A DNA stretch of 37,911 bases from a virus. Numbering within the stretch: the stretch's first letter is position 1; each line of letters opens with the position of its first letter. The notes beneath the pieces are model-generated. The model searched no databases and was not told the origin of the DNA. It saw only the letters and a program-made list of their open reading frames with translations. The stretch lies in UHGV virus genome UHGV-0078433; one strand, written 5' to 3'. Positions 1-32,193 of this stretch are shown here, piece by piece. A program made the translations under genes and the position numbers.

Positions 1-49
1 GCGCTAATTTTTTGTCAACGCACTGGGTTAGTTGAATTTACAACCATGC

Positions 50-445
50 TCAGTATCTCGATAAACGCAGAGAAATGATGCAGTGGTGGGCGGATTGGCT
101 TGATGAAAAAGTGGCGTAATGCCACCCATCACCCACCCTGTCATCCTGTAGCGCGCTGTTGATGAAGAACGTCACGCGCCCCAGCACCTCAACTTCCTCC
201 TCCTCCTCCCCTTCGATCGCTTCACCATCATCAGTGATTAATGTCCTACCCATTACCCGGGCAAACTGCGTTCTGCCGCCAGATAAAATCAGCAGAACCT
301 GATTCTGTACCAGCCTGGTGCACGGCTCGATAACGGCAAAGCCGGATGAGGTTTCCAGGATGCGAGTGTCGACGCCAACACCGCAGATTCGCTCCGGAGT
401 TAACCGCTGCTCTACATAGTCGCCAGCCGGCGAAGGGAAGCCCAT
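50..445 (-). CDS. UmuD'-like S24-fold protein, begins at the UmuD autocleavage position, catalytic Ser/Lys not conserved
   Basis: N-terminus MGFPSPAGDYVEQR matches the UmuD segment just after the Cys24-Gly25 cleavage site; GGAGG-type RBS 8 nt upstream; positions aligning to SGDSM and TVKKL read SSGFAV and a Gly/Glu-rich stretch. Confidence 0.6.
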   Translation of the reverse strand: MGFPSPAGDYVEQRLTPERICGVGVDTRILETSSGFAVIEPCTRLVQNQVLLILSGGRTQFARVMGRTLITDDGEAIEGEEEEEVEVLGRVTFFINSALQDDRVGDGWHYATFSSSQSAHHCIISLRLSRY

Positions 446-693
446 TACAGAACCCTCCCCATGTTACGTAGCATCCAGAGACGGTTTTCACTGTGGTCAG
501 GCGTCTTGTCGACAAAGAACTCTTGATAGCGCTGGATCCACTCGTTGGCGTCGACCTGGCTGAAATGCCAGTTTCTCGTGCGCAACTCACGGATGAAGTC
601 GTTCGTATGAAGGCACTGATAACCCTTTGGGTTTTGCTGTACTGCAGCGACAAATGCGCTGTGAATGTCTGATTGGCGGGGTATGATCTGCAC
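445..693 (-). CDS. Hypothetical 82-aa protein, stop overlaps start of UmuD'-like gene (TAATG)
   Basis: Open frame of 82 codons; only possible start is GTG at 693 abutting AGGAG with zero spacer, in-frame TAA immediately upstream; no recognisable family. Confidence 0.45.
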   Translation of the reverse strand: MQIIPRQSDIHSAFVAAVQQNPKGYQCLHTNDFIRELRTRNWHFSQVDANEWIQRYQEFFVDKTPDHSENRLWMLRNMGRVL

Positions 694-700
694 TCCTTTT

Positions 701-720
701 TACTGTTTTTATATACAGTA
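701..720 (-). promoter_or_regulatory. LexA (SOS) box, TACTGTATATAAAAACAGTA as read on the - strand
   Basis: Perfect CTGT-N8-ACAG with AT-rich spacer; as I recall it, the same 20-mer as the E. coli umuDC operator; sits at the centre of a ~60-bp palindrome (684-743) upstream of the 82-aa/UmuD'-like unit. Confidence 0.75.
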
Positions 721-776
721 GTTTTAAAGGAGATGCAGATCAATGAGGCGATACCTATCAATAATCCCGGCTGGCG

Positions 777-2606
777 TTACACCTGACCAAGGTCCTCTAC
801 GCTTTCCTGATCATTCAGCAAGGTAATGGCAACAGCAATTGAGGAGAGGATAGTTTTGATTTCTATGGTGTTCATCCCTTCCTTTTCCCGGACGTACTCG
901 CATAATTTATCGACGTCAAATATCTCTCTGATGTTTGTATATTCGGCGGCTCTTTCAAGCAAGTGCACGATTTCTTCTCGCTGACCTTCGACAAATTGAG
1001 CCTGCCATGCTTGCACAGACCTTGGCGTGAATTTAACCCCGCTATCATAAGGAGCATCTGCGATATCAAGGCCAAATCTACCCTGCAATGATTTATCCCA
1101 TGTCGCATTCAAAAATGGCAGAGAAACTAATTCAGGAGCCAGCTTTGCCATGACGCTGTAGTGGAACAATTCTTTGTTCCTGGCCTCCGGACTGAGCTTG
1201 AATACCAAACGCGCAACTTTAGGAGAGAGAAGTGGCATCAGTTTAATTCTGCCTGTGACGTTCTGAGCAAGAGGGCCGTTCCAATTGGAAAGACGGTTTT
1301 CTACGAAGAACTTCTCAGGTAAAACATCAAACCTTACAGATTTAATATTCTCCTCAAGCCAGCCGTAGAACCAACCTATTTGAGCGTTTTTATACAAACT
1401 GGAGAGAATGTTTAATGGATCCATCTTCTGATGGTAGTTTATGAACTTAGAAAGAATTGCATCTTTATTGTCCATAAAGGACAGGTTTTTAAACTGCTTG
1501 GCGTGTCCGCCGGGTCCGCGATATAGCTCGCCGCCAAAGCCAGTCATATCGGACGTTATATTTTTGATGGTGCGTTCAGCTGTTGCTCCATCCCATGGGC
1601 AAATATAACTTTCCATTCTGTAGGAATGCCAGTTAAGTTTTTCCCATGAATTAGCAAAATCCTGAGCTTTAACTTGTGGAGCCTTAACGTTAGCGACGTG
1701 CTTAACGCCGATTTTGCTGGCTATGTTCTGAGCGCAACTTATCTCCGGGCTTCCTTCCGGTCCGTTCGTAAATGTGGTAATCCTGTCTTTGAATCCTGCA
1801 CCCAATGCCAGTGCAAGGACAAGACGAGAGTCCTTACCACCGGTCAGTGATAAGCGGAGTTCACCGGGAATGTTTTCACTCGCAGCCTTAAAGTTTTTCA
1901 CCAATTCATCTACGATCAAATCCCAGTCATCACCTGAAAGGTCATTTAGATATTCAGCATCCTCACTTGAAGGCCAGATCTGATTCTTAAATTTATTGAT
2001 ATTTACTGTTGTTGAACCGATTGGTGACTTTAAATAGCTACCTGCCGTGATTGTATTTACACCTTCAAATGGTGTTTCATTTCCAAATATATTGGCATGC
2101 CCAATCAACCAGCTCAATGAGGAAAGGTTATATTTACCATTGCCTCGTAATTCATGTAATGCAGATGCTCTGTTACTTACGCAGGTCACACCATCAATTA
2201 TTGTGTAATAAATAGGACAGGTGCCTGAGAAATCGCCGAAAGCAAGGAGGCCATTCTTGGAGGTTATTGAAACGAAGTTGTAAGACCCGGAAATATTGTC
2301 AAACATGTATTCCGCATCGTTTTTTGTGGAGGCATCAAGTGCGGCGTCAGACACGTCATAGCTATCCCCCATCCTTAAAACAGGGCCATTTATCAGGCAT
2401 ACGCCGCTTTGCTTAGATGTTATTCTTTTTGATATTTCGCCTTCCGCATTGCCACATGCTGTATATGCCCAAGCTCCGCTACCAGATATTTTATTAGCCA
2501 CCTCTACTGGCTTAAATGTTAAGTTCCTTTTTAGGGCCTGCTGCGCTGTCTCGTATAATTTCTTAACAGACTCGCTTTTTCCATTTAAAACAATAAAGTT
2601 TATCAT
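777..2606 (-). CDS. Asparagine synthetase (AsnB)-family PP-loop protein with GATase-like N-domain lacking the N-terminal Cys nucleophile
   Basis: 609-aa ORF; PP-loop LSLTGGKDS; AsnB-like motifs GDFSGTCPIYYT and AGSYL; residue 2 is Ile not Cys; visibly AT-rich versus neighbours. Confidence 0.8.
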   Translation of the reverse strand: MINFIVLNGKSESVKKLYETAQQALKRNLTFKPVEVANKISGSGAWAYTACGNAEGEISKRITSKQSGVCLINGPVLRMGDSYDVSDAALDASTKNDAEYMFDNISGSYNFVSITSKNGLLAFGDFSGTCPIYYTIIDGVTCVSNRASALHELRGNGKYNLSSLSWLIGHANIFGNETPFEGVNTITAGSYLKSPIGSTTVNINKFKNQIWPSSEDAEYLNDLSGDDWDLIVDELVKNFKAASENIPGELRLSLTGGKDSRLVLALALGAGFKDRITTFTNGPEGSPEISCAQNIASKIGVKHVANVKAPQVKAQDFANSWEKLNWHSYRMESYICPWDGATAERTIKNITSDMTGFGGELYRGPGGHAKQFKNLSFMDNKDAILSKFINYHQKMDPLNILSSLYKNAQIGWFYGWLEENIKSVRFDVLPEKFFVENRLSNWNGPLAQNVTGRIKLMPLLSPKVARLVFKLSPEARNKELFHYSVMAKLAPELVSLPFLNATWDKSLQGRFGLDIADAPYDSGVKFTPRSVQAWQAQFVEGQREEIVHLLERAAEYTNIREIFDVDKLCEYVREKEGMNTIEIKTILSSIAVAITLLNDQESVEDLGQV

Positions 2607-2871
2607 TTAATTCCCGCGCAAGATAATTGGCAATATTTAAAGTTGATAACTATTTGGTTAACAGAGTAAACAACCAAGATTGTGCAATACTTGCTAGGAC
2701 GGGTCAATGATTTGTGTGTGGTTTTGGGGTCTAACCACTAATTTTGATATCAGTAGTGAATTTTACAAATGCAGGATTGAGGGTGCTCTTGCGCCACCAA
2801 AAGATGCGAATATGACGTAGCGAAAGCACCCTCTCTGTTTGGGTAGGATTGACGATTAGTGCATCAGAAAG

Positions 2872-5358
2872 CTACTTTGCTTCGAGATTTCCCACTCGTT
2901 CAGCCAGAGCCTCAAACTGCGATAGCAGCCTTTGATGATTACGACGATGAAGGGCAGCCTCCATCACTAATGCCTCCTCATATCGAATGCCATAGCGTGA
3001 TCCCGCTTCAACCGCCGGAACTACTACATCGCCAGTCTCTTCATCAAGAACTTCTGGTGAGCTTTCCCACTTGTCATAACAGAAGAAAGCAAACTGGTGA
3101 GGATCAAGTCCATGACGGATAAACGCTTCTTGCGCACGCTGGGCAATAATGCCGACATGCCAACGGGCTCCATCATCTCCCTTTGCCTCTATACGGTCAA
3201 TGAACTGGAACTGCACGAAATCTACTTCCGCCCAGGCATCCAGAATATCATCTGCGTACGGCGCTTCCATTAACCGTGAATCTGTCGTTTGGACGGGTTC
3301 GAGAGAACCACGAGCCAGCATCACTGGACGCGATTTTTGCCTTTCATCGGAGGTGACAGTATACGCAGCCTGAGTGAATCCGCCCGCAAATGGACTTGAA
3401 CTGGTACCAACAGTTCTGGTGTTAGCGGCGCTGGGCTGGATATTGCCGTTTACGCTCATGTTGGTGTTGATATTTACGACAGCAGAAGCAAAGCGTGCAA
3501 CTTCAGTACCGGCCGACGCTTCAGTTGATGAGACGTAGAGGCCGACAGCATTTTTACTAAGGACTGCGGTTCGGGCAAATCCACTAGAATCGCGGATCTC
3601 TCCGAGCCCAACTTGATAATCGTCAGACTGCGGGCCGGTAACGTTAGTGATGCAATGGAATACGCCACCCATTTGGTTAAACGGATCTGTCACGGATTCA
3701 AGATGAAGGCCATCTATAATGATCTTCCCGGTATTGCTACCCCCTGACTCTATGCCTACAGGGCAATTCCTTAACGTCACGTTGGTTAGTTTTTGATATT
3801 TCCTGTTCAGGCGTAAGGCAACATTGGTGTCTCTACACACAATATTGGTTACAGAACACGCCTCTGCATCACCAAACTGCCGATCACTGGCTCCGGAGGC
3901 TGTTGTTGTCTGGTATCCGGTTATTGCGTTAGCGCACTGAATATTTGATCCGTTGCAATATCGCTCCTCAATCCACACTGAAGCCCCAATTCTTCCGCCA
4001 TCATATCCGAGACATGATATATTGCTGTAATTGACGAATGGGGATTTAATATGGAGCCCGATGATGTCTGAATCAGTGGATTTAAATCGGTTCTGAATGA
4101 CTGTGATGTTTGTAACATCACTCCATACACCGCCAGTTCCACGACTGACGGTATCGCCAATGATCCCCTGCTTGATACGGACGCCAGCGCCGGGCGCTCC
4201 GACGTTACCAAAGTCTGACACATAAACGTTCGATACCTTCGGCGCCAATGACATTACGTCAACGCCTGCCCAAGGGTGGGCTGGCTCGTCAAGTTGCCCG
4301 AAGTTGAAAACGAAGATGTTATTTAATTGAAACGCGCGACTGACAGACCCATTATCCTTAATGTCGATACCATCTGCGCCGGTGTTTTCAGACCAGAATC
4401 CGTCGATGCTGCAGCCCTTATACCCGCCATTCTGAAGACCCAAGGCATAATGAGAGCAGTTCTTTACCTTGAGGCCGCGAATTGTAAGCCCCTCGATTCC
4501 TGCTCCGACAATGCCTTCAGTTTGCCGGGCGTAAGGAGTACCATTCCATAAGTAATTCCCGTCGATACAAATATCTTGAAGGCCGACGCCCCTTACTTTT
4601 GTGGTGCCGTTTTCGAGCGGTGGCTTTGACCACTGTATTACCCCATATGCAGCATCTGTGTTGTAAGCTCTTATAGTAGTAGAGTTCCATCCCTGCCCAC
4701 GGAGAATAATGTTGTCAAATGGGATGCGCAAAGCAGCAACGTTTAACGTTGCGTTGGCAGAGCTAAATTCAGTCGGATCCTGATGCACCATGTATAAGGG
4801 CCGCGGGAATACAATCGTGCCCCCGCCGGCTGCACTGAGTTCCTGCGCCTTCTGCATTATCAGTCTTGCGTTCTGCAGGGCGACAACCTGGCTAACAACC
4901 CCAGGGATTACGCCAAATGAATCAGCGGTTATTTCAATGCCACCAATTAATGACGAGCCGGTACTGGAGCTTAATCTCTGGACAAAAGAAAACGGATCAA
5001 CCAGGGAGCAATTTTCAAAATAGTATTGCTGAGCCCCATAAGCATCGTAAACAGCCATGCTGTAATCACTTTCAGTGACTATGGTTACAACCTGGCCATT
5101 ATATACTGGGTAACCTGAGGAATTAATTTTAACTGGCTGGCTGATCTGCACCAGGGAGCCATTTTCATTCCTGAAATAAACCGCTACCCTATTGGCTGGA
5201 TTTGTTGGATCCGTGTCAGGAACACCAACATAAATATTACCGTTTGCGATAGCTTTAAAGCTTCTCGGCGTAATAAATGGGATGTACGGCATTGTTACTT
5301 GCTGGTTGGCAATGATATCTGGCATTTGCTGTTCTCCAGGTGCAGAAAAGCCGCACAA
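2872..5358 (-). CDS. Tailspike: P22 gp9-like head-binding N-domain, beta-helix depolymerase-like centre, C-terminal self-cleaving chaperone (S74-type) domain
   Basis: N-terminal ~110 aa resemble P22 tailspike N-terminus (recall); repetitive beta-helix-like middle; SDERQK motif followed by ~150-aa chaperone-like tail. Confidence 0.85.
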   Translation of the reverse strand: MCGFSAPGEQQMPDIIANQQVTMPYIPFITPRSFKAIANGNIYVGVPDTDPTNPANRVAVYFRNENGSLVQISQPVKINSSGYPVYNGQVVTIVTESDYSMAVYDAYGAQQYYFENCSLVDPFSFVQRLSSSTGSSLIGGIEITADSFGVIPGVVSQVVALQNARLIMQKAQELSAAGGGTIVFPRPLYMVHQDPTEFSSANATLNVAALRIPFDNIILRGQGWNSTTIRAYNTDAAYGVIQWSKPPLENGTTKVRGVGLQDICIDGNYLWNGTPYARQTEGIVGAGIEGLTIRGLKVKNCSHYALGLQNGGYKGCSIDGFWSENTGADGIDIKDNGSVSRAFQLNNIFVFNFGQLDEPAHPWAGVDVMSLAPKVSNVYVSDFGNVGAPGAGVRIKQGIIGDTVSRGTGGVWSDVTNITVIQNRFKSTDSDIIGLHIKSPFVNYSNISCLGYDGGRIGASVWIEERYCNGSNIQCANAITGYQTTTASGASDRQFGDAEACSVTNIVCRDTNVALRLNRKYQKLTNVTLRNCPVGIESGGSNTGKIIIDGLHLESVTDPFNQMGGVFHCITNVTGPQSDDYQVGLGEIRDSSGFARTAVLSKNAVGLYVSSTEASAGTEVARFASAVVNINTNMSVNGNIQPSAANTRTVGTSSSPFAGGFTQAAYTVTSDERQKSRPVMLARGSLEPVQTTDSRLMEAPYADDILDAWAEVDFVQFQFIDRIEAKGDDGARWHVGIIAQRAQEAFIRHGLDPHQFAFFCYDKWESSPEVLDEETGDVVVPAVEAGSRYGIRYEEALVMEAALHRRNHQRLLSQFEALAERVGNLEAK

Positions 5359-23182: not shown

Positions 23183-23671
23183 CTACGCTACATGTTTAAT
23201 TTTCTCTACACGTTTCCGGTTTTTAAACGCACTATCCAGAACCGGGTAAATCATAAACAACGAGGCATTGAGGATTTCGTCAACTTCCCGACGACAGGTT
23301 GCGAGCGATGGTTTTTGAATGCGCCCGCCGCCCCGGCATAACATCTTGCGAGGTCTTGCGACGCGATGATAGTAAGATGCAATGGCGTGCTTGGAAGAAC
23401 CGTGGGCGTAGTAGCTGAGGAGGATGCCAAAGGCTTTCTTGTCAATGTACATGACGGAATCGACGACCTGAGAAATCAACATTCCATCATCATCATTGCA
23501 CATCGGCCTTGTCATAACTCTTCCCGGCTCTACGCTCTCCATGAACTTCGCTATTACGCTGCTCATGCGCTTTTCAAGACGACCTGAATAAACCCATGCT
23601 CCCCACAGTTCAAGCCAGCCATTCAGCCAATCGTGCTGCTCTTTGGTGAGGTTTAGTTCTCTTATGCTCAT
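23183..23671 (-). CDS. Late-gene antiterminator Q-like protein
   Basis: 162-aa ORF between NinH and the ~530-bp leader before S; no zinc-finger of lambda Q visible, so a different Q family. Confidence 0.65.
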   Translation of the reverse strand: MSIRELNLTKEQHDWLNGWLELWGAWVYSGRLEKRMSSVIAKFMESVEPGRVMTRPMCNDDDGMLISQVVDSVMYIDKKAFGILLSYYAHGSSKHAIASYYHRVARPRKMLCRGGGRIQKPSLATCRREVDEILNASLFMIYPVLDSAFKNRKRVEKIKHVA

Positions 23672-29592: not shown

Positions 29593-29740
29593 GTTTCACT
29601 CCTGCTTTGGCTAGTCTGTAAACACCAACAAGGCGCTCTGCGAACGCCCTGTTATTTGCTGCGGCTACCACTAATCCCTCAGGTGAATCAGGGTGTCGAA
29701 TCTCTTCTTTTTCCTGGTATTTCTTACGACGTTTTGTCAT
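29579..29740 (-). CDS. Possible 53-aa basic ORF between c1 and O-like gene
   Basis: Hand-translated MTKRRKKYQEKEEIRHPDSPEG...; stop overlaps O start; below track cutoff. Confidence 0.3.
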   Translation of the reverse strand: MTKRRKKYQEKEEIRHPDSPEGLVVAAANNRAFAERLVGVYRLAKAGVKHGRR

Positions 29741-29772
29741 AATGACTCCTGTGGATTGATCCAGTAATTCCC

Positions 29773-30069
29773 TCAGAATTGCATATCAATTTGCTTAGAG
29801 TCCCCGGCGGCCACCGGGGATTTTTTCTTTGTGATTTCATCAAGCGCATACTTAAAAGCCCTGCTAATCGGACTGATGTCTGATGCCATTCCGAAAGCAC
29901 ACAAGACCGAAGCAATAAATCTCCAGTCCGTTCTGCTTATCTTCGATTCATGACAGCCAATCATCTTTGCCAGACCGCGCTGGGTAAGCGTTGACAGGTT
30001 GATGAGTAAATCAGTTTCAGCGCGATCAATTTCTCGCTGTGTTGGCTTGCTGTAGCTTGCTTGTGCCAT
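29773..30069 (-). CDS. c1: cII-type transcriptional activator (P22 c1-like)
   Basis: Position right of cro; HTH LAKMIGCHESKISR. Confidence 0.75.
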   Translation of the reverse strand: MAQASYSKPTQREIDRAETDLLINLSTLTQRGLAKMIGCHESKISRTDWRFIASVLCAFGMASDISPISRAFKYALDEITKKKSPVAAGDSKQIDMQF

Positions 30070-30137
30070 TTGTTAATTTTCCTATATTGATATTGAGTTA
30101 TAGCGGCACACCCAATGGATTTGCCGCTGATGTTTGC

Positions 30138-30178
30138 TCACCCGGTTAGAGGTGAAAGACCAGAACTGTTAAAGAGCA
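30138..30178 (-). promoter_or_regulatory. nutR candidate: boxA TGCTCTTTAACA plus boxB-like hairpin with CUAACC in loop
   Basis: Immediately downstream of cro stop on - strand. Confidence 0.5.
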
Positions 30179-30184
30179 ATTTGC

Positions 30185-30370
30185 TTATGCCGCTTGGCGG
30201 TAAGCACTTTCTTGATACTTCAGGGCGCCAGCTGTAACGATTTCCAATCGATAGGCGTCTTTCTCTGGGATAACTTCTTTCCACTGAGAGACTGCTGCAT
30301 CGCTAATGCCTAGTGCTTTAGCAACAGCACGCTGGGTTCCGAAGTGGTCAATAACATCTTTTTTGTACAT
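30185..30370 (-). CDS. cro: Cro repressor (P22-type)
   Basis: MYKKDVIDHFGTQRAVAKALGISDAAVSQWKE... as recalled for P22 Cro. Confidence 0.9.
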   Translation of the reverse strand: MYKKDVIDHFGTQRAVAKALGISDAAVSQWKEVIPEKDAYRLEIVTAGALKYQESAYRQAA

Positions 30371-30383
30371 AGACTCGCTCCGA

Positions 30384-30450
30384 AATTAAAGAACACTTAA
30401 ATTATCCACCAAAGGAATCTTAAGTCAAGTTTATTTAAGATGTCTTAACT
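30384..30450. promoter_or_regulatory. Right operator/PR-PRM region with P22-type palindromic operators
   Basis: AATTAAAGAACACTTAAATT (30384-30403) and ATTTAAGATGTCTTAACT (30433-30450) between divergent cro and c2. Confidence 0.6.
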
Positions 30451-31101
30451 ATGAATACACAACTGATGGGTGAGCGTATTCGCGCTCGCAGAAAAGAACT
30501 CAAGATTAGGCAGGCTGCCCTTGGCAAGATGGTTGGCGTGTCTAATGTTGCTATTTCCCAATGGGAGCGATCTGAAACTGAGCCCAATGGCGAAAACCTA
30601 TTGGCCTTAGCCAAGGCTTTGCAGTGCTCCCCTGATTACCTGTTGAAAGGAGAGGATAGTCTTTCAAACATTGCCTATCACAGCAGGCATGATCCAAGAG
30701 GTTCGTATCCTCTAATTAGTTGGGTAAGCGCAGGATGTTGGATGGAAGCTGTAGAGCCATATCATAGGCGTGCAATAGATAACTGGTACGACACAACGGT
30801 AGATTGTTCTGAAGACTCTTTTTGGCTCGACGTTAAAGGCGATTCAATGACTGCCCCGGCAGGACTGAGTATTCCTGAGGGGATGATTATTCTCGTCGAC
30901 CCAGAAGTCGAACCACGTAATGGAAAGCTGGTAGTCGCCAAACTTGAAGGAGAAAACGAGGCGACATTCAAAAAGTTAGTTATTGATGCCGGTAGAAAAT
31001 TCCTGAAACCACTCAATCCACAATACCCAATGATTGAAATCAATGGGAACTGTAAAATCATTGGCGTTGTCGTTGATGCCAAGCTAGCAAACCTTCCTTA
31101 A
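30451..31101 (+). CDS. c2: C2 repressor (LexA-like S24 family, P22-type)
   Basis: Near-identical to P22 C2 as recalled; intact GDSM and KK cleavage motifs. Confidence 0.95.
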   Translation: MNTQLMGERIRARRKELKIRQAALGKMVGVSNVAISQWERSETEPNGENLLALAKALQCSPDYLLKGEDSLSNIAYHSRHDPRGSYPLISWVSAGCWMEAVEPYHRRAIDNWYDTTVDCSEDSFWLDVKGDSMTAPAGLSIPEGMIILVDPEVEPRNGKLVVAKLEGENEATFKKLVIDAGRKFLKPLNPQYPMIEINGNCKIIGVVVDAKLANLP

Positions 31102-31125
31102 GGGGCTTTCGCCCCTTTTTTATTT
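31101..31125 (+). terminator. Rho-independent terminator after c2
   Basis: AGGGGC-TTTC-GCCCCT followed by TTTTTTATTT. Confidence 0.7.
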
Positions 31126-31159
31126 CCCGTTAAAAATCAAAGACAAACTAAATTCACGT

Positions 31160-31220
31160 CCATAAAATTAAGTTTTCTTCAAAAATGCACTTGACCAATA
31201 AATTAAGAAGTCTTAAATTT
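31160..31220 (+). promoter_or_regulatory. pL with left operators
   Basis: -35 TTGACC (31191-31196), -10 TAAATT (31214-31219), palindrome AATTAAGAAGTCTTAAATT overlapping. Confidence 0.5.
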
Positions 31221-31265
31221 AAGCCATCAGCAGGACGCTGGAAGCCAAACGGAACAGATTGGCAG

Positions 31266-31305
31266 GCTCTTTAACATCGACGGACTCTCAACCTAACCGT
31301 TGAGA
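31266..31305 (+). promoter_or_regulatory. nutL candidate: boxA GCTCTTTAACA plus boxB-like hairpin TCTCAAC-CTAACC-GTTGAGA
   Basis: Between pL and N-like gene; loop shares CUAACC with nutR candidate. Confidence 0.5.
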
Positions 31306-31415
31306 CCAGAACTTGAGTGGTTTTGGGGATGGCGCGAATTGCAGCTGCAAGACAGCGATCGAGAAGATAAGCACCTCGACGCGTCATGCGCCAAAGCCAC
31401 TTAAAGGAGACCATC

Positions 31416-31721
31416 ATGGTAACCATTGTCTGGAAAGAATCCAAAGGTACGGCAAAAAGCCGCTACAAAGCTCGCAGAGCAGAACTTATTGCCGAGCGAC
31501 GCAGTAATGAAGCACTGGCGCGAAAAATTGCGCTAAAGCTCTCTGGTTGCGTCAGAGCAGACAAAGCAGCATCACTAGGAAGCCTTTGCTGCAAGAAGAA
31601 AGAAGAAGTCGTTCGAAAAAATAGAAGTATTTATTACAAAGATTCAAACCCGTTAGGAAACAAAATACATGCAGTCCAAAAAATAAAATTGTACAGTAAA
31701 CTACCGTACGGTGCTTATTGA
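31416..31721 (+). CDS. N-type antiterminator (P22 gene 24-like) with arginine-rich motif
   Basis: ARM GTAKSRYKARRAELIAERR resembles the P22 N peptide GNAKTRRHERRRKLAIER (recall); start at MVTIVW with GGAG RBS rather than track start 31386. Confidence 0.7.
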   Translation: MVTIVWKESKGTAKSRYKARRAELIAERRSNEALARKIALKLSGCVRADKAASLGSLCCKKKEEVVRKNRSIYYKDSNPLGNKIHAVQKIKLYSKLPYGAY

Positions 31722-32062
31722 GTATGCTTATGGTGAAAAAGACTATTTATGTTAATCCTGACCGCGGACAAAACAGAAAAGTATCTGATAGAGGTCTTAC
31801 ATCTCGAGACAGGAGGAGAATAGCGAGATGGGAAAAAAGGATAGCATATGCATTAAAAAACGGTGTAACACCTGGATTTAATGCTATAGATGACGGTCCG
31901 GAATATAAGATTAATGAAGAACCAATGGACAAAGTTGACAAAGCATTAGCAACACCATTTCCTCGCGATGTAGAAAAAATTGAAGATGAAAAATATGAGG
32001 ATGTAATGCACAGAGTTGTTAATCACGCTCACCAACGAAATCCAAATAAAAAATGGTCATAG
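31718..32062 (+). CDS. Hypothetical AT-rich moron protein downstream of N
   Basis: ORF track; followed by its own terminator. Confidence 0.5.
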   Translation: MSMLMVKKTIYVNPDRGQNRKVSDRGLTSRDRRRIARWEKRIAYALKNGVTPGFNAIDDGPEYKINEEPMDKVDKALATPFPRDVEKIEDEKYEDVMHRVVNHAHQRNPNKKWS

Positions 32063-32085
32063 CCCACTTCGGTGGGTTTTTTATT
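32061..32085 (+). terminator. Rho-independent terminator
   Basis: CCCAC-TTCG-GTGGG followed by TTTTTTATT. Confidence 0.7.
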
Positions 32086-32091
32086 GTCTGA

Positions 32092-32193
32092 ACAAATCTA
32101 ATTTACTACCGCAAGCCACGCAGTGAAATGGGTGTGACTTGCTCAGGCCGCCAGAAGCAACGCGGAAAATCAATTCCAGCTTATTACGATTGA
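32092..32193 (+). pseudogene. Relic 3' end of a lambda-type N gene
   Basis: Frame reads IYYRKPRSEMGVTCSGRQKQRGKSIPAYYD, matching the lambda N C-terminus ...WYSKPGERGITCSGRQKIKGKSIPLI (recall); in-frame stop just upstream. Confidence 0.5.

Follow-up and report, generated by a model that had tools for sequence, protein, structure and literature searches.

The sites at 31266-31305 (+ strand) and 30177-30137 (- strand), together with an arginine-rich N protein, were assigned with a probability of approximately 95% to the phage 21 type (imm21), namely as nutL, nutR, and the N gene carried by an E. coli temperate phage or prophage with a P22-like mosaic genome. The window, i.e., the whole stretch of viral DNA analyzed (37,911 nucleotides), contains these elements within a lambdoid immunity and early-control region. 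Judged by its sequence, the N-boxB pair is an already known one, namely an ordinary copy of the antitermination switch of coliphage 21, whose N-nut system is the third classic specificity class beside those of lambda and P22. The initial annotation had suggested a distinct N-boxB specificity pair; the novelty implied by this is not supported, since both sites and the arginine-rich motif (ARM) are those of phage 21. In a base-by-base alignment with the annotated features of Escherichia phage 21 (OL657228.1), 60 out of 60 positions of nutL and 59 out of 60 positions of nutR were identical, and the ARM agreed with the phi21 peptide at 22 out of 22 residues.

The presence of two nut sites, each composed of a boxA and a boxB-like hairpin with a CUAACC loop, was confirmed, with two exact copies of the boxA sequence GCTCTTTAACA and stems of 7 bp. 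The boxA of nutL, representing the NusB-NusE binding element, is located at 31266-31276 (+) and is homologous to the feature 'boxA-L' of OL657228.1, and the boxA of nutR was found at 30177-30167 (-), homologous to 'boxA-R' of phage 21. The boxB of nutL (31286-31305, +) features the stem UCUCAAC/GUUGAGA (31286-31292/31299-31305) enclosing the CUAACC hexaloop (31293-31298), and exactly equals the phage 21 'nutL' stem_loop. Likewise, the boxB of nutR (30156-30137, -) is composed of the stem UUCACCU/GGGUGAG (30156-30150/30143-30137) and the same CUAACC hexaloop (30149-30144), and spans the 18-nt phage 21 'nutR' stem_loop. All four elements (boxA-L, nutL stem_loop, boxA-R, and nutR stem_loop) are annotated in the phage 21 record and, transferred from the phage 21 locus to the window by a fixed offset of 28629, correspond to 31266-31273, 31286-31305, 30170-30177, and 30138-30155, respectively. 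Since the copy of GCTCTTTAACA at 31266 is encoded on the + strand, the first nut site is situated on this strand, co-oriented with N, and not on the - strand as the wording of the initial annotation suggests, whereas the placement of the second site on the - strand was correct. At both sites, the linear boxA with its GCTCTTTA core lies 5' of boxB on the transcribed strand and in the correct orientation. The placement is canonical: nutL follows pL and precedes N, and nutR separates cro from cII.

Similarity to phage 21 was also found around the nut sites. The window segment 29733-31638, comprising cII, nutR, cro, cI, OL/pL, nutL, and N up to approximately codon 74, was 97.8% identical to phage 21 over 1.9 kb, and the repressor was 100% identical to phage 21 cI over the annotated 190 aa. 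Both results indicate that the window carries imm21. An immP22 region, as considered from the repressor, was rejected, the identity to P22 C2 being 94% vs. 100% for phi21 cI. The features shared with phage 21 include the boxA GCTCTTTAACA, both CUAACC boxB hairpins, the complete ARM, N residues 1-57, cI, cro, cII, and OL/pL. In contrast to phage 21, the nutR spacer of the window features a single C-to-T change, N residues 58-101 diverge (80% overall identity to phi21 N), N is followed by nun instead of ral, and the remaining window sequence represents a P22-like mosaic with podovirus morphogenesis genes, encoding portal, terminase, DNA-transfer proteins, and tailspike.

Regarding the repressor itself, cI is given in the phage 21 record (locus 1900-2472) as a protein of 190 aa starting from an internal Met. 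The repressor open reading frame of the window (30451-31101), like P22 C2, features 26 extra N-terminal residues, including the start of the helix-turn-helix domain, and because both carry these residues, the cI start of phage 21 may be mis-annotated.

Homology to P22 (83.6%) was restricted to the window segment 30167-31280 (cro-c2-OL/pL) and ended at both boxA elements; no P22 DNA homology was found beyond boxA into boxB or N. This block accounts for the P22-like impression conveyed by the initial annotation, and its ends place boxB and N just outside the P22-like part. Since P22 homology stops at boxA, while the phage 21 homology (97.8%) extends beyond it through boxB to N and cII, boxA resembles a mosaic joint at which immunity and antitermination-specificity modules meet.

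The gene content of the region follows the order expected for such a system. On the + strand, the cI/C2-type LexA-like repressor (216 aa, HTH_3 and Peptidase_S24 domains; 30451-31101) is followed by a hairpin with a T run representing a terminator (31100-31117) and by a pL-like promoter (TTGACC, 17 nt, TAAATT; 31191-31219), the pL start of the phage 21 record being homologous to approximately position 31226. Downstream of nutL and N, a gene for a Nun-like transcription arrest factor was identified at 31724-32062 (+), its product matching HK022 Nun (PDB 6ALG chain N) at 107 out of 109 positions. An intrinsic-terminator-like hairpin with a T run (tL1-like; 32061-32078, +) is located directly after nun and represents a candidate target of N read-through. 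On the - strand, a pR-like promoter (TTGACT, 16 nt, GATAAT; 30428-30401) precedes cro (P22_Cro family; 30370-30185) and, as the first gene past nutR, a cII-type activator gene (30069-29773). This strand also encodes an O-like replication protein and a DnaB-type helicase; just after the helicase gene, a strong intrinsic-terminator-like hairpin (27372-27349, -) is situated in a tR2-like position. Beyond this terminator, ninB, dam, rusA, and a Q-family gene were found; the latter (23183-23671, -; PF06530) encodes a Q-type late antiterminator and would be a downstream beneficiary of N read-through. Another strong intrinsic-terminator-like hairpin (11 pairs and a T run; 29797-29824, +) was observed on the strand opposite to cII, overlapping the 3' end of this gene. 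It occupies the same position as the terminator of the oop antisense RNA in the P22 record.

Direct comparison with the reference genomes supported the initial annotation in that the loop and the ARM differ from those of lambda and P22. The window shares with P22 the boxA-spacer-boxB hairpin architecture, an N-terminal ARM, and the boxA core GCTCTTTA. However, P22 (NC_002371) features the boxA CGCTCTTTA(A/C)C and, at both sites, a boxB whose 5-bp GC-rich stem carries a GACAA pentaloop, and the ARM of its gene 24 product (GNAKTRRHERRRKLAIERD) matches the window ARM (GTAKSRYKARRAELIAERR) at only 9 out of 19 positions. The description of the motif as related to, but distinct from, that of P22 was thus appropriate. 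With lambda, the window has in common the positions of the sites relative to pL/N and cro/cII and the logic of ARM-boxB and NusB-NusE-boxA recognition, but lambda (NC_001416) differs by its boxA CGCTCTTA(A/C), its GNRA-like boxB pentaloops (GAAGA and GAAAA), and its ARM MDAQTRRRERRAEKQAQWK, which matches at 7 out of 19 positions. An assignment to the lambda N/nut class was rejected on account of the loops and the ARM, and an assignment to the P22 gp24/nut class for the same reasons and because DNA homology stops at boxA.

The N antiterminator gene (31416-31721, +) encodes a protein of 101 aa, which agrees completely with phage 21 N in residues 1-57 and diverges in its C-terminal third. Its ARM (ESKGTAKSRYKARRAELIAERR), encoded by codons 8-29 (31437-31502, +), is identical at 22 out of 22 residues to PDB 1NYB chain A, entitled 'Probable regulatory protein N' and representing the phi21 N peptide on boxB RNA. 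The primary reference for this NMR structure of the phi21 N peptide-boxB complex is reportedly Cilley and Williamson (RNA, 2003). Furthermore, Franklin (1985) reportedly compared the determinants of antitermination in lambda, phi21, and P22, and Lazinski et al. (1989) is a classic reference for the arginine-rich motif. The latter two studies are cited in PMC9074901, and PMC12550061 describes the complex of the N peptide with phi21 boxB (PDB 1NYB), including its CUAACC hexaloop.

In a profile comparison, N matched PHROG 271 ('anti-termination protein N-like') with an E-value of 4.6e-31. For the Pfam family PF25694 (N_peptide), a score of 18.4 bits was obtained, which is below the cut-off of 27.9, and the NCBIfam search with N and Nun yielded no match. 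Translation of N most likely starts at ATG 31416, which is preceded by an AAGGAG Shine-Dalgarno sequence (31403-31408) at a distance of 7 nt and is also used as the N start in the phage 21 and mEp235 annotations; for these reasons, the upstream ATG 31386, giving an open reading frame of 111 aa, is a less likely candidate. An inverted repeat of 10 pairs was noticed at 31373-31397, just upstream of and overlapping the N ribosome-binding region; like the leader structure of lambda, it might have an influence on the translation of N.

Within the C-terminal third of N, a second homology begins. The window segment 31604-32079 is 96.4% identical (459/476) to DNA of HK022, O276, and HK75, and this homology to HK022 begins 120 nt before nun, at N codon 63 (31604-31723, corresponding to codons 63-101). 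In HK022, the homologous stretch is the non-coding leader and promoter of nun, located after putL. The hexamers annotated as 'nun gene promoter' in O276 (-35 ATGCAG, 17 nt, -10 TACAGT) are identical in the window (31669-31674 and 31692-31697), where they are located within the N reading frame (codons 85-94). Because N codons 63-101 and the promoter hexamers match non-coding DNA upstream of nun in HK022 and O276, HK022 appears to keep a 3' remnant of an N gene of the window type, and the Nun of the window could be made from both pL and the internal promoter.

The nun gene, matching PHROG 5632, starts 2 nt past the N stop codon, and the phage of the window combines a phi21-type N with the Nun arrest factor. 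Such N-nun tandems were also found in mEp235, mEpX1, Kapi1, PDP110P1, PA28, 06-3462, and about a dozen Stx1a phages. Nun has been described to bind the lambda-type boxB via its own arginine-rich motif and to exclude lambda and lambda imm434 (PMC4124055). Since Nun targets the lambda-type boxB, a boxB of the phi21 type may render the combination of N and Nun self-compatible. A joint reading of these results can be formulated as follows: N is chimeric, its 3' third being nun leader/promoter DNA of the HK022 type, the nun locus of HK022 is a decayed N-nun tandem, and the phi21-type boxB permits the phage to keep N and Nun without self-exclusion. As a whole, this reading is a possible but rather doubtful one.

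The chimeric appearance of the gene also bears on the question of whether N acts as it does in phage 21. The C-terminal tail of lambda/phi21-type N proteins enters RNA polymerase in the lambda complex. In residues 58-101 of the window N, only the YY.K, G, QKIKL, SK, and P positions of the lambda/phi21 tail 'YSKP..G.TC.GRQKIK..PLI' are kept, so that full activity of this allele is inferred. It is conceivable that the nut sites are genuine phi21-type sites, but that the N allele is functionally altered, being either weakened or changed in its dependence on Nus factors or polymerase, with antitermination unlike that of phage 21. The departure from phi21 N at approximately codon 58, the 96.4% identity from codon 63 onwards to the non-coding nun leader of HK022, and the merely partial retention of the tail are in line with such an alteration. 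However, the allele is found, with 99% identity, in the isolated, plaque-forming phages mEp235, mEpX1, and Kapi1 and in many Stx1a phages, its reading frame is intact, and the QKIK core is preserved. In addition, the gp24 proteins of P22 and L have been reported to be functionally interchangeable despite unrelated C-terminal 25-35 residues (PMC8022706). The occurrence in isolated phages and the gp24 precedent support a fully active N allele, and a functional alteration is regarded as improbable.

To evaluate the predicted hairpins, the boxB sequences were folded as isolated 24-mers. Both formed the expected structures, in agreement with the hairpins initially annotated, with -8.0 kcal/mol (z -7.4) for nutL and -7.6 kcal/mol (z -2.4) for nutR. 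In longer sequence context, the nutR hairpin was robust, with a pair probability of about 0.97; for the nutL hairpin, a probability of 0.25-0.55 was predicted for naked RNA, because an equally stable helix involving the spacer competes with it. In this alternative, the spacer UCGACGG (31277-31283) pairs with CCGUUGA (31297-31303) on the + strand, the latter consisting of the two 3'-terminal loop bases and the 3' arm of the nutL boxB, and the two structures are near-isoenergetic (-7.6 kcal/mol for the alternative helix vs. -7.4 kcal/mol for boxB). Most of the spacer variants observed in viral contigs replace a C opposite G by U and would thereby preserve the alternative pairing. Folds of 49-nt windows were no better than those of shuffled sequences (z approximately -0.7), and the minimum-energy structure of the nutR 49-mer was one other than boxB. 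The 24-nt folds and pair-probability calculations were used in place of the 49-nt folds.

Comparison of the two stems revealed that all 7 pairs differ between nutL and nutR, 5 of them by compensatory changes on both sides and 2 by one-sided changes with pairing kept, and that the loop is invariant. When nutL, nutR, and two nutR variants from viral contigs were combined into four rows, 6 out of 7 pairs were changed on both sides, and 92.9% of the cells were paired, vs. 12-50% with slid partners. This covariation rests mainly on the comparison of L and R, because the pattern scan of IMG/VR, which recovered at least 120 loci, gave essentially two stem classes with minor variants. Among the 181 pattern matches listed, nutL-type and nutR-type boxB sequences dominate. 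In approximately 20 of the IMG/VR matches listed ('...CCATGAACGA CTAACC'), a stem is lacking; these probably represent unrelated boxA-like sequences. A common nutR variant (about 19 copies among those listed from IMG/VR, e.g., GCUCACCU-CUAACC-GGGUAAGC) features an internal C-A mismatch in the boxB stem, giving 4 pairs, the mismatch, and 3 pairs with an unchanged loop.

That the hairpins represent chance inverted repeats or terminator fragments without any role in antitermination is extremely unlikely. The failure of the 49-nt folds to exceed shuffled sequences and the lack of a matching Rfam family could be cited in favor of this explanation; the gathering scan of the whole window with Rfam returned no family, a result that is uninformative either way, as Rfam may hold no curated nut/boxB family. 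However, GCTCTTTAACA occurs in exactly two copies in the 37.9-kb window, one per strand and both at the nut sites, and a pattern combining boxA, 16 nt, and CTAACCG was not matched in 100 shuffles. CTAACC was found 17 times on both strands of the window, but a stem of more than 3 bp surrounds it at the two nut sites only, with 7 bp each, and composition-matched mononucleotide shuffles gave only 0.03 such sites with stems of 6 bp or more. The canonical positions and orientations of both sites, the compensatory nature of the L/R stem changes, the absence of a T run after either hairpin, and the conservation of the sites in more than 100 viral contigs also argue against chance.

The phage 21-type module proved to be widespread. 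By megablast, the pL-nutL-N segment was detected in 131 phage records, including phage 21, lambda imm21, DE3, mEp235, mEpX1, Kapi1, and many Stx phages, and the segment comprising nutL and the 5' part of N was present in 818 out of 5426 complete E. coli genomes, the coverage being 80% or more in 379 of them; the copies are usually annotated just as 'hypothetical protein'. The phages mEp235, mEpX1, and vB_EcoP_Kapi1 share with the window the 99% N allele, the nut sites (apart from the C-to-T change in the nutR spacer of the window), and the N-nun tandem, and mEp235 is 99.1% identical over 29731-32156 of the window. In contrast to the present description, their records mark a 'putative Nut boxA' and not boxB, and their genomes are mosaically different elsewhere. 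A previously undescribed N-boxB specificity pair, apart from all characterized lambdoid classes, has next to no probability: the CUAACC hexaloop and the ARM do differ from the lambda and P22 reference genomes, but the sites and the ARM are identical to the annotated phage 21 nut sites and the phi21 N peptide of PDB 1NYB, the same hexaloop-peptide complex is already in the literature, and the module occurs in the numerous phage records and E. coli genomes mentioned above.

For the phage 21-type system, a mechanism can be proposed by homology with phi21 and lambda, in which the binding of the phi21 N peptide to the CUAACC boxB (PDB 1NYB) and the architecture of the N/Nus complex are taken from the literature. 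After derepression, RNA polymerase starting from pL (+) and pR (-) would transcribe boxA and boxB, and the boxB RNA would form the 7-bp hairpin with its CUAACC hexaloop. The N-terminal arginine-rich helix of N (GTAKSRYKARRAELIAERR) would then bind this hairpin, as has been described for the N-terminal helix of N, which contacts the major groove and the loop of the nascent boxB hairpin (PMC4509934). NusB-NusE(S10) would assemble on the linear boxA, and NusA and NusG would join. In the general N mechanism, NusB-NusE on boxA and the joining of NusA/NusG make RNA polymerase resistant to pausing and termination (PMC8632103). Remaining attached to the polymerase, the complex would make it read through the tR1 region preceding cII and through the terminators located behind nun (32061-32078) and behind the helicase gene (27372-27349). 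The one behind the helicase gene must be passed to reach nin and Q. As a result, the genes for recombination and replication, the nin genes, and Q would be expressed.

The discovery value of the module is small, as it represents a textbook specificity class with a solved peptide-RNA structure that is present in approximately 15% of complete E. coli genomes. Its use lies mainly in annotation, because most records with the module call N a 'hypothetical protein' or mark a 'putative boxA' alone. The boxB can be confidently annotated by pattern, namely a CUAACC hexaloop on a 7-bp stem located 9-10 nt past GCTCTTTAACA. Furthermore, the exchange of antitermination specificity modules among lambdoid and P22-like phages is illustrated by the N-nun tandem and by the mosaic joints found at boxA. 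If the joint reading of N and nun is true, the phi21-type boxB specificity would spare a phage that encodes both N and a Nun directed against the lambda boxB from excluding itself.
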